In this document: positions 334 to 57,100 of the stretch, piece by piece
Position numbering within the stretch: position 1 is the stretch's first letter
Layout: every line of letters begins with the position of its first letter
Assembly (NCBI GenBank): GCA_964016885.1
Contig: OZ024740.1
Span: 222,146,001-222,210,000, forward strand
Origin: Eledone cirrhosa
Taxonomy: Eukaryota
Direction of reading: 5' to 3'
Length of the DNA: 64,000 nt
The notes under the pieces: generated by a model
The model's database searches: none
What the model saw: the letters and a program-made list of their open reading frames with translations, nothing else
Told to the model about the DNA's origin: nothing
Made by a program: the position numbers and the translations under genes

Positions 334-1255
334 ACTCAAGCAGTCCTTTACAATGAAATAGCTCAAAGAAAGAAGTATTTCTGAGCCGTGTAATACAAGT
401 TAATATAAATTAATATATATGATAAAACACAAATACCAACATATAAGTGTTTGTATTGTAAATGACTAAGTTAGCTAGATTGAAAAATACTAATTATAAT
501 AATACATATACATATATACAAGCATACACACAAGTAAGCTTATACAAGGAAGTAAGTAAAGAATACTTACATAATCAATACTGTGAAGCGAACCAAAAGT
601 GGGCGTAGGCTGAGTGTAGGGGCTGGGGCAAGATGTAGAGGGAGGGGATATTATGTCCAGTGTGGTGTTATTTTTAAACTATCGTTCTGGGGGCAGAACT
701 GGTTTGTAGGATTTATATGTTGCATAGTTTTTGTACAGTGAGTTTGTTCATTGTCGGGCCCTTGCCAAATAGTAGTTCATAGATTTGCGAAATACAAATG
801 TCGCAACGCTTTTTCCTCCTATGTTTGAGCGCGCTCTCTGGAGTAATCCAGTCTTCTGAACGAGATGGGTATGGTCATACCACCGGGACTTAAATTTGTT
901 GGTTGTCATTCTGATATATGTTTTTTTTTGTTGTTGAGACGATATCGCATTTATATAGGATGTCATTCATCAGGCATTTATTTTTGAGTGGACACGCTTC
1001 CATATTGTTGTGGCAGTTGCACAAGGATCCCATCCAGAGGTGGGTTTCGGAGGGAGTAGGCTTATTTAATTTAGCAGTGTTGAGGTTGGCTATATCCCTA
1101 GCCAAGTTAGGTGTAGTGGAGTAGGAGTCTTATCGTATTCTTATTATAAATAGTGTAGTACCTATGCTGTGTGGGGAAGTGTTTCTTTAGCAATTTGAAG
1201 AAAGTCCTAGCTATTGGTGTAGATATCTCTAGATTGAAAGGGGGTGTACCAACTA
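334..1255 (-). mobile_element. Degraded Penelope-like element 3' fragment (GIY-YIG domain plus 3' tail)
   Basis: Frameshifted ORFs 1107-1255, 890-1105 and 748-966: [54 protein letters not shown]; tail 334-470 is similar to 7326-7450. Confidence 0.8.
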
Positions 1256-1445
1256 ATTTGTCTATACCTATTTCTCCTAAGTGGTCTTGGGGTGTTTTAT
1301 ATATGTATATAAATATTAATATATATATATATATGTATATATATATACACATCAATATATATATATATACATCAATATATATATATACATATATACATAT
1401 ATATATATATATATATATATATATATATATATATATTGATATACA

Positions 1446-1975
1446 AGAGCGGGAGAGAGAGATCGTCCTGACGAGTGCCAGTTGAGTTCGAAATGCATCG
1501 ACGATTGTCCCGCTTGCTTCTGCCGGGCATCGCCTGGTGGCGCTACCTGCCAATGTGTTATTCATAGCTATGGTTTTCTAAATGTTTATTTATAAACATA
1601 TCATATTTTTTTTAGAAATATGAAATTCAAATACATATTTGTATACAGCTATGTTGGAAGGTAAATTCTAATTCTATTCTATTATAAGTCGAGCCAACTT
1701 ATACAGCTTTATATGTAAATAAGATTAATGACCTCCTTTACACAGACGAAAAACTATATATTTTCGCCTGTTTTCACAGTCCGGCATTTACTAGAGCGGG
1801 AGAGATCGTCCCGACCAGCACCAGTTGAGGTCGAAATGCATAAATGATTGTTCCTCTTGCTACTGCCCAGTCACCGCCTTGTGGCATTAGCTGCCAGTCT
1901 GTTATTCATAGCTATGGCTTTCTAAATATTTATTTATTAACATACTGTATTTCTTTAGAAATACGAAATTCGAAC
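1446..1975 (+). mobile_element. Non-coding tandem dimer (~343 nt period) with one HHR per unit; retrozyme-like
   Basis: 1446-1635 repeats at 1794-1975; both units start with an HHR; no ORF; flanked by TA/CA repeats. Confidence 0.75.
1462..1505 (+). ncRNA. Type I minimal hammerhead ribozyme
   Basis: ATCGTC-CTGACGA-[weak stem II]-GAA-ATGCAT-C-GACGAT: 6-bp stem I, canonical core, palindromic stem III, AUC site; decayed second copy at 1805-1848. Confidence 0.8.
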
Positions 1976-2294
1976 ACAGACACACACACACATAAATATA
2001 TATATACAATGGTGGTCGTTTGAATATTTCATTGATTTGATTTCGTGTTTATCTGAAAAATATAAAATAAAGTTAATAATTATATAAATTTGATGTTATA
2101 TTAATCTGATTAAAACATTAAGCAAAAAACACAAATTAAAATTTTGAAGACCAAAACATGCGTATGTAGAATGTTAGATAAAAGCAAAAATATATACAAG
2201 ATTTTTGGTGTGTGGTAAGTGTTTGGTAAGTGTATTTTCAAATTTCCGAATTTAATGTACCGAAATAAATATTTATGTGCAAGCAATGTAGGTT

Positions 2295-2497
2295 TAGGCA
2301 CAAGGCCAACATTTTTGAGGGAGAGGAAAGTCAATTAATTCGAACCCAGTTCATTACTGGTTCTTTATTTTATCTACCCCTTAAGAATGAAGGGCTAAGC
2401 TTATCTCGGCGTGATTTGAGCTCAGAACACAAAGGCACGTAACTCTATATCACAAATCATGTTTTCCAACGCCCTACCGATGCTGTCAATCCACCGC
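2295..2497 (-). mobile_element. tRNA-derived SINE (Meta-domain-like), diverged copy
   Basis: Reverse complement of the GAGTTCAAATC..GCCTTTCATCC..GATAAAATAAAG consensus seen in the other copies. Confidence 0.7.
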
Positions 2498-3477
2498 TAC
2501 AGGAAATATTAAACGCTCACAAGAAATATTTTGTAACAAACTAGAAAGTCAAATGTCGAAAGTAGTTATCTAGAAACAAACAGAGCAGTATCAATCGACA
2601 GAGGAGAACAAAGGAGTATTTGAAGTAGTAATTCCATCAGTAATTTAGTCTCTGTAAATGATGCCAAGATGTCTAAGATGATATAGCCATTCAAATTTCA
2701 GCTGTTGTATGTAATGGAATATTTTCTTTGCAATTATCTTCTACTTATTTTTACATCTTTCATTCTAACCTTAAAGTTCAGTTATATCCTCTCTGCATAT
2801 AGATCAAATGTCCGTCCATAAAACTTCGTATGTTTTACGAGTGAGCCGACTCTGCTTAGTTACGAAACTGTGGCTTTAATTATCTTTAAGTTAATGTAAA
2901 CTTTATAGCAGTAACCAAAAGAAAGACTGGTGTAATTATTCGGCTTATATATTCTGTTTTTCTTAACATTCGACAAAATGCCATGTTTTGCAGGTTAGAA
3001 ACATAATGAATTAAATCAGATTGGGATTATGCATTTCTAAACTCAATGCTACAAGTAGCCTTTAGTTTATAGGAAAAAGTTTCTTACAAAATTTAGATAT
3101 GTTGCTTTGAATTGTGGGTTCAAACATATCCAAGGTAAATTCTGCTTTTCATTCTCCCTCTAGACTTTATTTCATTGACTCTAGACTCAAGAGTCAATGA
3201 AATAAATATCAGTCATTGTAGTTGTTTAGACGAAGATCAACCCTGATTGAGCAGTCTAACGATTAAATGCAGTCTCTTCATGCCACCGCATTATTTTAGA
3301 TGTATAAATGATTGAGTTATCTACACTATCCTGACCATATGTAAGCCAACAATCTATTATGTAATGTCTATTCCTATCAGGTTGAGAACAGGAGGTATAT
3401 TATACCGAGTTGGATTCAATTAAATTAAACCGCGCAGTAAATCTGTGTCTATATGTGAGAGTTAGAAATATTATTTA

Positions 3478-54676: not shown

Positions 54677-55183
54677 GGACAAAATGAAAACACACACAGG
54701 ACAAAATGAAAACACACACACACATAGAACAAACAACTTACAATTAAGGACAAAATGAAAACACACACACACATAGAACAAACAACCAACCAACAATAAA
54801 TAAATAAATAAATAAACAAATAGATAAATGAACACAAACACACACCGACACCCGGATGTGGCGCATGCGCAAACTGAGCACACAACACACACACAGAAAC
54901 AAAATGGCGTAGGATAGAAGAAAGGAAAGGCACAGAAACAAAGAAAGGAATCCCCAGTCACTGAAGAGGTCACAGAGTGTGTGACGAAATGACTATGACT
55001 ATATATAAACAACTATCTGGTTGTGGAACCAACCAACCAACCAGAAATTTATAGGTTTGTAGATTTGTAAATTTATAAATTTATAAATATATAATAAATT
55101 GAAGTGAAAGCAACTGGTGCGTGTGTTTCTTATTTGCAACATGACCCTCCCAAAGTATAACAATATATATATATATATATATG

Positions 55184-55720
55184 TATAAATAATAAGAATC
55201 AAAGAACTGTTCAAAACATGTTTATGCTTACAACTGTTTCCCCCAAACCGAGGTTTGGATTCTTCGCAGCAATTTATTATTGAATGAACACTTATATGAC
55301 CTCCTTTTCAACCCAAGAGACATACAGATACACAAATATTGTGGGTCAACATCCATTACAGCATTTAGTGTGGCAGTACACATTTATATGTTGACCCACA
55401 ATATTTGCATGTGTATGTGTATGTCTCTTGGGTTGAAAAGGAGGTCATATAATGTTCATTCAATAATAAATTGCTCCGACGAATCCAAACCTCGGTTTGG
55501 AGGAAACAGTTGTAAGCATAACAATGTTTTGAACAGTTCTTTGATTCTTATAATTTATATAACTGCTCTGTAAATCATCTGATGTTCTTACATTGATGTT
55601 CTTACTGGTAATAAGGTAGTAATATATTACAGCCTATCACTATTTAGGGTTTGTAAAAATATATATAACTAGAAAAGGTTTTTGTATTTGCATAACCATA
55701 AATAGTATACTTAATACTAT
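55184..55720 (+). mobile_element. Fold-back element (~170-bp arms, 55184-55559) with an HHR in each arm, plus tail
   Basis: Arms are reverse complements with few differences; loop ~55352-55387. Confidence 0.85.
55472..55518 (+). ncRNA. Variant hammerhead (U4C); mirror copy at 55225-55271 (-)
   Basis: TGCT-CCGACGA-A-TCCAAACC-TC-GGTTTGGA-G-GAAAC-AGTT-GTA-AGCA. Confidence 0.75.
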
Positions 55721-55773
55721 ATATATATATATATATATATATATATATATATATATATATATATATATATATG

Positions 55774-56530
55774 TAATAAAGAATTTATATCTAGTAACAT
55801 ATATATACATACAAATGCATATCGATGCTAGCAAATATATAGGTTTTGTCTTAATAACATTGTGGTTCAATGCATGGGGTTGCAGAACAATAATATAAGA
55901 GACGTAAGATAAGAGAATTATAAAATTAACTTACTAAAATATCACTTCCAACTAGTTAGTTTCTGGAATGGAGTAGATACATCTTCCGAAGAAGGTGTTG
56001 AGAAACATCCCGTCATCAGGAAAGTCTATTCTCATATAAGTTTCCAGGCAAAGCGAGGACTCTGGAAGCTTATTAAAAAATAAATCAGTGAATAGGAAAT
56101 AGCAAAGCGTGGACTTACTTCCTAGCCATTGAGAAAATCACTACCTCTGTGTCTGTGGCAAATTCAAAAAGAATCGAACACGTGACATCGAGGTCAATCG
56201 GTGGAAAGTGGGTTGTTAATAAGACAGCGGCCAGCCTACTACTAAGTATGTTAATTTTATAATTCTCTTATCTTACGTCTCTTATATTATTGTTCTGCAA
56301 CCCCATGCATTGAACCACAATGTTATTAAGACAAAACCTATATATTTGCTAGCATCGATATGCATCTGTATGTATATATATGTTACTAGATATAAATTCT
56401 TTATTATTATCTCCAAAATATTTGTCGAGCAATACTGGCCATGACTGCTGCTACGGTAGTAGGCTGGCCGCTGTCTTATTAACAACCCACTTTCCACCGA
56501 TTGACCTCGATGTCACGTGTTCGATTCTCT
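55774..56530. mobile_element. ORF-less HHR unit present as two divergent, circularly permuted pieces
   Basis: 55774-55934 inverted at 56245-56407; 56170-56242 inverted at 56457-56528; HHR at 55944-56025 (-). Confidence 0.8.
55944..56025 (-). ncRNA. Hammerhead ribozyme with extended stem II
   Basis: ACTTTC-CTGATGA-C-GGGATG..CATTCC-A-GAA-ACTA-AC-TAGT-T-GGAAGT. Confidence 0.82.
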
Positions 56531-56888
56531 TATATATATATATATGTATATATATATGTATGTATATGTATGTATGTATGTATGTATGTATGTATGTATG
56601 TATGTATCTATGTATGTATGTATGTATGTATGTATGTATGTATGTATATATATATATATATATATATATATATATATATATATATATATATGTACATATA
56701 TATATATATATATATATATGCATATATATATATATGCATATATATATATATATATATATATGCATATATATATATATATGCATATATATATATATATATA
56801 TATATATGCATATATATATATATATATATATATATATATATATATATATATATATATATATATATATACATATATATATATATATATA

Positions 56889-57100
56889 TAGGAACGAGTA
56901 GGACCCCGACGGCTGAGCTCAAGCCGTTTCGACGCCTAATTCTGGACTAAAATCAGATTTTAGTCCAGAATTAGGTGTCGAAACGGCTTGAGCTCAGCCG
57001 TCGGGGTCCTACTCGTTCCTATTACCCACTCTACTACCCTAAGTATTGAGTACTTTGGTGCGTTATGGTCCACCTGGTTCCTTACCACATTTCCTTCGTT
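56889..57100 (+). mobile_element. Fold-back element (66-bp arms centred on 56955) containing an HHR 3' half, plus tail
   Basis: Palindrome 56889-57021; right arm GAAACGGC-TTGAGCTCA-GCCGTC-GGGG. Confidence 0.82.

Follow-up and report, generated by a model that had tools for sequence, protein, structure and literature searches.

Penelope-like elements (PLEs) are the closest mobile relatives of telomerase. Their choice of start for reverse transcription, and the reason for the optional tail and inverted arms of their copies, have been a puzzle for two decades. In several other systems (the 3′ untranslated region (UTR) folds of R2 and long interspersed elements (LINEs), hepadnavirus epsilon and the template-boundary elements of telomerase), a bulged stem-loop recruits the reverse transcriptase (RT) and fixes the start. 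The signals of R2 and LINEs are situated 5′ of the start and become part of the copy, the bulge of epsilon serves as template, and the telomerase boundary stops synthesis. Inverted arms are also produced by L1 twin priming. In this study, we analyzed a 64,000-nt stretch of the Eledone cirrhosa genome (GCA_964016885.1, contig OZ024740.1, positions 222,146,001 to 222,210,000; hereafter the window). The genome is 3.0 Gb in size and rich in TA repeats, and the window carries several PLE open reading frame (ORF) fragments. An initial annotation had proposed that about nine hammerhead or Penelope families in the window share a hairpin with a TT bulge. Our analysis suggests that Hydra-type PLEs and their non-coding derivatives possess two such bulged hairpins, each about 6 nt past one genomic 3′ end, and that these are quite probably RNA structures that bind the RT and set its start.

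The closest described elements are those of the Hydra clade (Craig et al. 2021, PMC8557442). The elements here share with them the RW(K/R), DKT and CxCX5C motifs, TA-repeat targets, a pseudo-long-terminal-repeat (pseudo-LTR) hammerhead, and inverted 5′-truncated copies in which the tail is often at one end only. In the portions of that paper covered here, the hammerhead is the only RNA structure given, although its consensus sequences contain the hairpin. A second comparison is provided by Poseidon PAc from anole, a PLE of another clade, again from portions of the report (Frangieh 2024, PMC11167929). Its protein, a predicted dimer, nicks and extends both strands in vitro. Two internal start sites bound the tail, and the RNA is needed to +172, well 3′ of the start at +111-118. 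PAc and the elements here have in common two discrete 3′ ends downstream of a hammerhead and AT-rich targets. In contrast, the anole start is inside an AC-rich stem-loop whereas ends here are outside the hairpin, tails are 30-40 nt in PAc and 80-150 nt here (61 nt in sea cucumber), and no conserved positioning motif is described in those portions. By hand count, the PAc template has UUGAAC (+119 to +124) directly after the start zone, and this could pair with UUC-UG at +42 to +46 (PMC11167929). In such a pairing, the start would fall inside the structure instead of 6 nt before it, and we take this as a lead only.

Non-LTR retrozymes, which have been proposed to be mobilised by PLEs, are tandem non-coding monomers with type I hammerheads (PMC7229834; 10.64898/2026.07.22.740005) and in this respect are similar to families F1, F2, F6 and F7 below. 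In the portions covered, neither study names a cis-signal for the PLE protein, and the words “bulge”, “hairpin” and “stem-loop” occur 0 times in those of PMC7229834. The hairpin pair would be this cis-signal. In agreement with the initial annotation, we found no description of the hairpin in the literature searched, a search that subscription papers, Repbase notes, figures and some supplements lay outside. Likewise, no Rfam family matches it: with Rfam 15, the window gave no hairpin-covering match above the gathering score, nine loci gave only Hammerhead_1, and microRNA matches were TA/CA repeats. As far as our search reaches, the hairpin is undescribed. It would belong to a known class, that of RNA folds by which an RT is positioned, and its geometry is unusual: in contrast to R2, LINE, epsilon and telomerase, the probable anchor is downstream (3′) of the start, uncopied and paired.

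Eight families were followed through the genome: F1 (hairpins at 361/7355), F2 (7032), F3 (19483/24592), F4 (23874), F5 (48799), F6 (51544/52206), F7 (55865/56292) and F8 (57028). F9 and F11 are the families annotated at 30824 and 59489, and N1-N4 are four families from the junction survey described below. All 13 hairpins listed initially were present with the arms given there. The list was incomplete, and five further hairpins, two of them second hairpins, are included in Table 1. The hairpin at 19691 looks by eye like that of a subfamily of F4. That the families have no other similarity largely holds, since blastn among 15 family references (about 270 nt each) returned a single 19-nt match. 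This match joins hairpin 1 of N3 (locus L056) and hairpin 2 of F7 (56410-56430) over 18/19 nt, a likeness due to either shared origin or convergence.

For each family, the genome was queried with the sequence upstream of the hairpin only, which left copy selection blind to what follows, and the best 30 loci of 40 scored candidates were taken for each of the eight window families. We call an end short when the copy stops before hairpin 1 and long when it includes hairpin 1 and the tail, which is the spacer stretch between the two hairpins; read-through copies continue beyond. Sorting of 232 copies, with the window's own copies excluded, gave 119 short, 77 long and 12 read-through copies, 13 that ended slightly earlier, and 11 within the hairpin or tail, to which 6 short F2 copies were wrongly assigned. 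In this sorting, 19 F5 ends read as -11 owing to a variant reference, whereas an earlier mapping put most of them at -7 to -4. Two discrete 3′ ends were present in all eight families, and most ends ran into TA repeats. Only 3/232 ends lay inside the hairpin, in a mapping with a poor F2 reference and over-extension into TA runs for F5 and F8. On this figure, we discarded a notion prompted by the anole sequence, namely that copies terminate within the hairpin immediately ahead of the UU.

The offset was fitted at 18 sites with 449 TA-flanked ends; hairpin 2 of F6 was left out because its anchor matched TA repeats, and F3 yielded no ends. The profile peaked at 6 nt: 318/449 ends fit exactly 6 nt before the first hairpin base and 379/449 fit 5-7 nt. 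By eye, 18 hammerhead loci picked with Rfam, all from the F4 group and hence one family only, comprised 8 with the hairpin and 10 that stop just before it. Because the 3′ ends of copies are fixed relative to the hairpin, the hairpin is tied to reverse transcription, as the initial annotation had supposed. When reverse transcription is target-primed, copying begins at the base that forms the genomic 3′ end, and the hairpin would therefore lie downstream of the start. Since copying begins about 6 nt upstream and leaves the hairpin out of the copy, the further suggestion that the hairpin itself is the priming site was not borne out.

Could the TA repeats alone explain these ends? Most junctions show 1-7 nt of TA microhomology, and non-Hydra families have two ends without the motif, as expected if a TA match between target and template sets the ends and the hairpin has another job (ribozyme regulation, export or promoter), being nearby by descent. 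However, TATA tracts within tails seldom serve as ends (1/29 in F6 and 0/29 in F7), and the offset of about 6 nt holds at both sites, whatever the hairpin length (16-80 nt) or the distance from the hammerhead (60-350 nt). We regard the microhomology explanation as very improbable. As a separate observation, T occupies the position 7 nt ahead of the hairpin in 14/20 contexts (by eye), which would suit a pairing of 1-2 nt with a primer that is derived from the TA target and terminates in A.

The initial annotation saw no clear copy of the hairpin in the families at 30824, 59489 and 1462. If these families are represented in the window by their short form, the hairpin should appear 6 nt past that end in copies with a tail. 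Tail-bearing copies of F9 indeed carry GCTC-TGCTA..TAGTA-TC-GAGC, and those of F11 carry ACTC-CAAG..CTTG-TT-GAGT; the window copy of F9 is a short form, from which the hairpin is absent. For family 1462, the absence held. In a junction-first survey, 1.89 Mb of genomic sequence was analyzed starting from TA junctions. The motif lay 0-9 nt after 9/30 junction clusters (some redundant, some not 3′ ends), as compared with 0.45 in shuffles; it lay 10-19 nt after 2/30 clusters, after 0/30 at 20-39 nt, and after none later. Four of the nine motif-bearing clusters are the new families N1-N4.

Two hairpins are present per element: in 6/6 families that have read-through copies, hairpin 2 begins about 6 nt after the long end. 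Its bulge is UA in F1, F2 and F9, UU in F4 and F6, and UC in F7. The spacing between hairpins 1 and 2 is 80 nt (F1), 100 nt (F4), 111, 115 and 118 nt, and about 150 nt in F9. Six long and five short ends of F9 lie directly behind its ORF.

Head-to-head insertions join two such ends. Both ends could be classed in 142 insertions (12 further inverted pairs with one unclassed end are outside this number): 132 combined a short end with a hairpin-1-containing end, 7 had two long ends and 3 had two short ends. Mixed pairs (132/142) thus exceed the 50% expected (p about 1e-28). F8 (56890-57100 in the window; loci L209-L238) consists mostly of tiny near-palindromic insertions of about 200 nt, with two 5′-truncated arms head to head, and 29/29 of its pairs have one short and one long end.

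These patterns would be best explained by the following mechanism, which we regard as probable. The hairpin would act as a downstream anchor with a 6-nt ruler and would not be copied in the event that it directs. The two strands of a TA repeat would be nicked by the endonuclease. Hairpin 1 would hold one RT, plausibly a subunit of a dimer, which extends one strand, and hairpin 2 would hold another RT, which extends the other strand. Head-to-head joining of the two 5′-truncated cDNAs would produce inverted arms, one ending short and the other long. Long ends directly behind the ORF need a hairpin 2 downstream, which would imply a template that is either a tandem transcript or a hammerhead-made circle. 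In its most general form, two identical small RNA handles, conserved from corals to echinoderms and in this genome, would each bring a subunit of an RT dimer related to telomerase to a point 6 nt downstream of its start, so that a single RNA, circular or tandem, would prime both cut target strands at once. We put this form forward tentatively and lean slightly against it. If it is true, the handle-pair rule alone would generate the tail, inverted arms and pseudo-LTRs of Penelope elements, and any RNA with two such hairpins could be written into TA repeats.

An identical offset, and copies that likewise lack the hairpin, are predicted if a host or element nuclease cuts the RNA about 6 nt upstream of the hairpin and the RT primes at the new RNA 3′ end in a LINE-like manner. 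RNA-seq read ends at the anole start sites are in line with such processing (PMC11167929). However, in the portions of that report covered here, the product size was unchanged on 3′ extension of the RNA, and unprocessed RNA was the main substrate. Moreover, if the RNA were cut ahead of hairpin 1, hairpin 2 would no longer be joined to the template, and this accounts for the short-plus-long pairing less simply than does docking of an RT on each hairpin. We consider RNA processing unlikely.

The core of the hairpin is 5′-(N)YUC / U(U,A,C)-GAR(N)-3′, in which a 2-nt bulge lies beneath a covarying upper stem. Pairs were counted in 20 hairpins (one natural copy per site), and the counts are inflated by selection of the 3′ arm as the best-pairing candidate. 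Both inner lower pairs (U-A and C-G, adjacent to the bulge) were invariant. The outer lower pair was G-C in 10, A-U in 7, U-A in 2 and a mismatch in 1, and the first upper pair was U-A in 9, C-G in 9, A-U in 1 and a mismatch in 1. Thus, the compensatory changes proposed initially are found at the outer lower and first upper pairs. The TT bulge on the 3′ side needs amendment: its first base is U, and the second may be U, A or C (UU 13, UA 4, UC 3). The upper part varies from 8 to 70 nt between families. When the 5′ arm was fixed, its place being set by the junction, and the rest was shuffled, an equally good partner had P <= 0.013 at 16/20 sites and P 0.03-0.12 at the remaining 4. Among the 13 cores listed initially, 12 fold alone as a hairpin closed by the stated lower stem. 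The 51544 core does not fold alone (0 kcal/mol), and the predicted fold of the 7355 core pairs through the bulge.

The covariation also bears on a possible role at the DNA level, in which the GIY-YIG endonuclease would read the hairpin or its sequence in a single-stranded or branched DNA intermediate and cut at a set distance from it, so that the intermediate is resolved either with the tail or without it. Craig et al. regard resolution by the endonuclease as the origin of the tail (PMC8557442), and PMC11167929 cites a requirement of the D. virilis endonuclease for the tail on plasmid DNA. In contrast, the stems covary across families and phyla, with 6 G-U and 0 A-C pairs on the sense strand (a count partly built into the descriptor), and the anole tail ends match RT starts measured in vitro, according to the portions of PMC11167929 covered. 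A DNA role is therefore rather improbable.

Enrichment was measured with a strict descriptor (RYTC, at least 3 Watson-Crick pairs, TT, GARY, span of at most 45) derived from the window copies themselves. It gave 10 matches in the window against 0.7 ± 0.75 (maximum 2) in 40 block dinucleotide shuffles. The other 15 two-base bulges gave 0-3 matches each, and UU was the sole enriched bulge there. Because the descriptor was built on the window copies, we re-tried it on 400 kb elsewhere in the genome, where it matched 13 times against about 6 in shuffles, and AA or TA bulges were as frequent as TT. Thus, the enrichment was clear in the window and only about twofold out of sample; the window is unusually rich in the motif, and the descriptor as a free-standing pattern is weak. 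Its use as a genome-wide detector was rejected. The low out-of-sample figure, together with relaxed descriptors that match many unrelated places in the window, is what a loose post hoc descriptor would give by chance in AT-rich repeats. However, chance is contradicted by the fixed offset, the two predicted successes, the second hairpins, the four new families and three published elements from other phyla, and we regard it as refuted for the position-anchored motif.

Which elements carry the hairpin? Hydra-type PLE ORFs adjoin F4, F5, F9 and F11 on the same strand; F5 follows Hydra-type endonuclease domains, and F11 precedes a Hydra-type ORF. Copies of F4 and F9 read into full ORFs, and the ORFs of F4 (locus L361; RWR) and F9 (window 29561-30529 and locus L366; RWK) both have DKT and a CxCX5C linker. 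In the F9 fragment of the window, a YIG motif is visible, and Pfam gave no match at E <= 0.01. Judging from these motifs and a visible likeness to published proteins, the ORFs presumably belong to the Hydra clade. At L361:478-3165, an 896-codon open stretch spans nearly the whole Hydra-type ORF of F4. This ORF has a long N/S/R-rich insert between the RT and the endonuclease, and a similar insert is present in F9.

Insertion into (TA)n and upstream hammerhead cores are likewise in keeping with the Hydra clade. Cores were sought by regular expression in 14 families and lie on the same strand, 60-350 nt upstream of the hairpin, in 9 of them; the expression detected none in the other 5, and Rfam scores are above the cut-off for F4 relatives. 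The strand given initially was thus correct, and the distance (20-290 nt) was too short. A hairpin lies within 320 nt upstream of 5/9 Hydra ORF starts. By eye, three of the six Hydra consensus sequences in File S7 of PMC8557442, covered in part, contain the hairpin. Coral Hydra-2_Amil has a UU hairpin with a 6-bp upper stem after the hammerhead; sea-cucumber Hydra-1_Ajap has two at the consensus start, UA then UC, 61 nt apart, and its consensus 3′ end stops just short of the first hairpin; Hydra-2_Ajap has one with a UA bulge.

The non-Hydra PLE at 53211 possesses a CX4CxxC linker, a hammerhead and two discrete ends. Its tail and two tails behind other non-Hydra ORFs lack the motif. Among eight passages of Naiad consensus sequences, one (Naiad_Mmer) has a motif-like hairpin about 450 nt from the consensus end, without a link to the end, and PLE protein scans of viral contigs returned no relatives. 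The hairpin appears to be limited to the Hydra clade, autonomous elements included, rather than common to all hammerhead and PLE families as proposed initially. The central proposal, a conserved PLE cis-signal on the hammerhead strand that non-coding derivatives keep, stands. F1, F2, F6 and F7 look like tandem non-coding monomers (662 nt in the F6 tandem of the window). From the shared hairpin, TA targets and end pattern, we infer that the non-coding F1, F2, F3, F6, F7, F8 and N1-N4 are mobilised by Hydra proteins.

Several observations weigh against two RT-positioning hairpins. In a non-Hydra control family, 14/14 pairs were short plus long without the hairpin, and so a two-site mechanism does not need this motif: short-plus-long pairing is a PLE-wide rule, for which the hairpin would be the Hydra clade's signal. 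In anole, both strands used both start sites alike (PMC11167929, portions covered), and consequently a strict one-site-per-strand rule is not favoured. The value of 6 nt is only a best fit, because TA microhomology widens each end interval, and hairpin 2 of F7 prefers 5 nt (6/39 ends fit 6 nt and 35/39 fit 5-7 nt). The second-hairpin count of 6/6 excludes F3, F5, F8, F11 and N1-N4, of which no read-through copy is in hand; hairpin 2 of F9 rests on 2 copies and has no canonical pair above the bulge. The ensemble probability of the lower stem was below 0.2 in 8/20 contexts, 4/6 second hairpins among them, and two second hairpins fold no better than shuffles, so that protein capture would have to stabilise them. 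No match was present upstream of 4/9 Hydra ORF starts. By eye in File S7 of PMC8557442, covered in part, the sea-louse Hydra element (Crog) has two purine-bulge variants only, Hydra-1_Amil has a weak, 1-bp version, and no hairpin is visible in Hydra-1_Obim. To these are added the inflated pair counts and the out-of-sample descriptor results given above. Finally, 7 copies of family 1462 have a TTGAGC-like word downstream, with no pairing partner where the offset would place it. This tandem hammerhead family (1440-1960 (+) in the window) may depend on another PLE clade. Besides TA repeats, CA repeats often adjoin its ends, and in some copies a perfect 8-bp AT-rich hairpin opens the tail.

What is gained is a minimal sequence-and-structure signal with a measured offset, found across phyla within one clade, by which the origin of the PLE tail and inverted arms becomes directly testable. 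The signal is also a candidate cis-element through which non-coding hammerhead retrozymes borrow the PLE protein. It offers a marker by which these parasites could be placed in the Hydra clade and may be of use as a portable handle when insertions are to be templated by RNA.

Table 1. Hairpins, hammerhead cores and associated PLE features in the window.
Feature	Position	Strand	Remarks
Hairpin 1, F1 tandem non-coding monomer	361..386	-	Other copies end about 6 nt before; hairpin 2 is 80 nt on
Hammerhead core, inverted arm of F2 insertion	6620..6680	-	Short end of arm near 6521
Hammerhead core, tail-carrying F2 arm	6866..6926	+	
Hairpin 1, F2	7032..7062	+	Tail reaches TA repeat near 7134
Hairpin 1, F1-related variant	7355..7380	-	
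Hairpin 1, F3, UC bulge	19483..19522	+	
Hairpin 1, F4-like subfamily	19691..19724	+	Relation by eye
Extra hairpin 1, UA bulge, tandem non-coding F1-like element 22540-23420 (-)	23017..23039	-	Missed initially
Type I hammerhead, F4	23783..23808	+	Rfam RF00163 weak; over cut-off in 18 genomic relatives
Hairpin 1, F4	23874..23895	+	Read-through copies elsewhere reach hairpin 2 and Hydra-type ORF
Hairpin 1, F3	24592..24631	-	
Hydra-type PLE ORF, 3′ part, F9	29561..30529	+	CxCX5C linker, YIG motif
F9 3′ UTR up to short end	30770..30918	+	Hairpin 6 nt on in tail-bearing copies
Extra hairpin 1, F8 variant, UC bulge	37709..37732	+	Missed initially
Extra hairpin 1, UA bulge	38302..38322	-	Missed initially; hammerhead-like core upstream; tail ends in TA
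Hairpin 1, F5, long upper part	48799..48878	-	
Hairpin 1, F6 terminal monomer	51544..51584	-	Tail ends in TA
Hammerhead core, F6 monomer	51881..51941	-	
Hairpin 2, F6	52114..52131	-	Missed initially; right after long end of other copies
Hairpin 1, F6 internal monomer	52206..52246	-	
Negative control: non-Hydra PLE tail (ORF 53211-54335)	52650..52705	-	Two ends, without motif
Hairpin 1, F7	55865..55888	-	Tail ends at 55774
Hammerhead-like core, F7	55959..56019	-	
Hairpin 1, F7 read-through copy	56292..56315	+	
Hairpin 2, F7, UC bulge	56410..56430	+	Missed initially; outermost pair mismatched
Hairpin 1, F8	57028..57051	+	Inverted arm short near 56889; this arm long near 57100
F11 (59489) short-form end	59520..59650	+	Hairpin 6 nt on in tail-bearing copies

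Several further features of the window were observed. At 22964-22978 (-), 61 nt past the hairpin at 23017-23039, there is a hairpin-2-like GCTC..GT-GAGC, in which the bulge is GU rather than UN. The non-Hydra PLE at 52650-55160 is an inverted insertion with its long end near 52650 and its short end near 55164. The tail of this element, 55 nt long and AC-rich, has a small stem-loop at its start and is closer to the anole description. A frameshifted ORF of a non-Hydra-type PLE with RT and GIY-YIG Pfam matches lies at 20422-22543 (-); its 3′ UTR ends in TA near 19860, and the patterns used found no hammerhead core or hairpin there. In addition, 31554-32129 (+) is presumably a fragment of a mariner-like transposase, and 34828-35346 (+) is a fragment that we take to resemble the end of LINE ORF2, both on the basis of their motifs.

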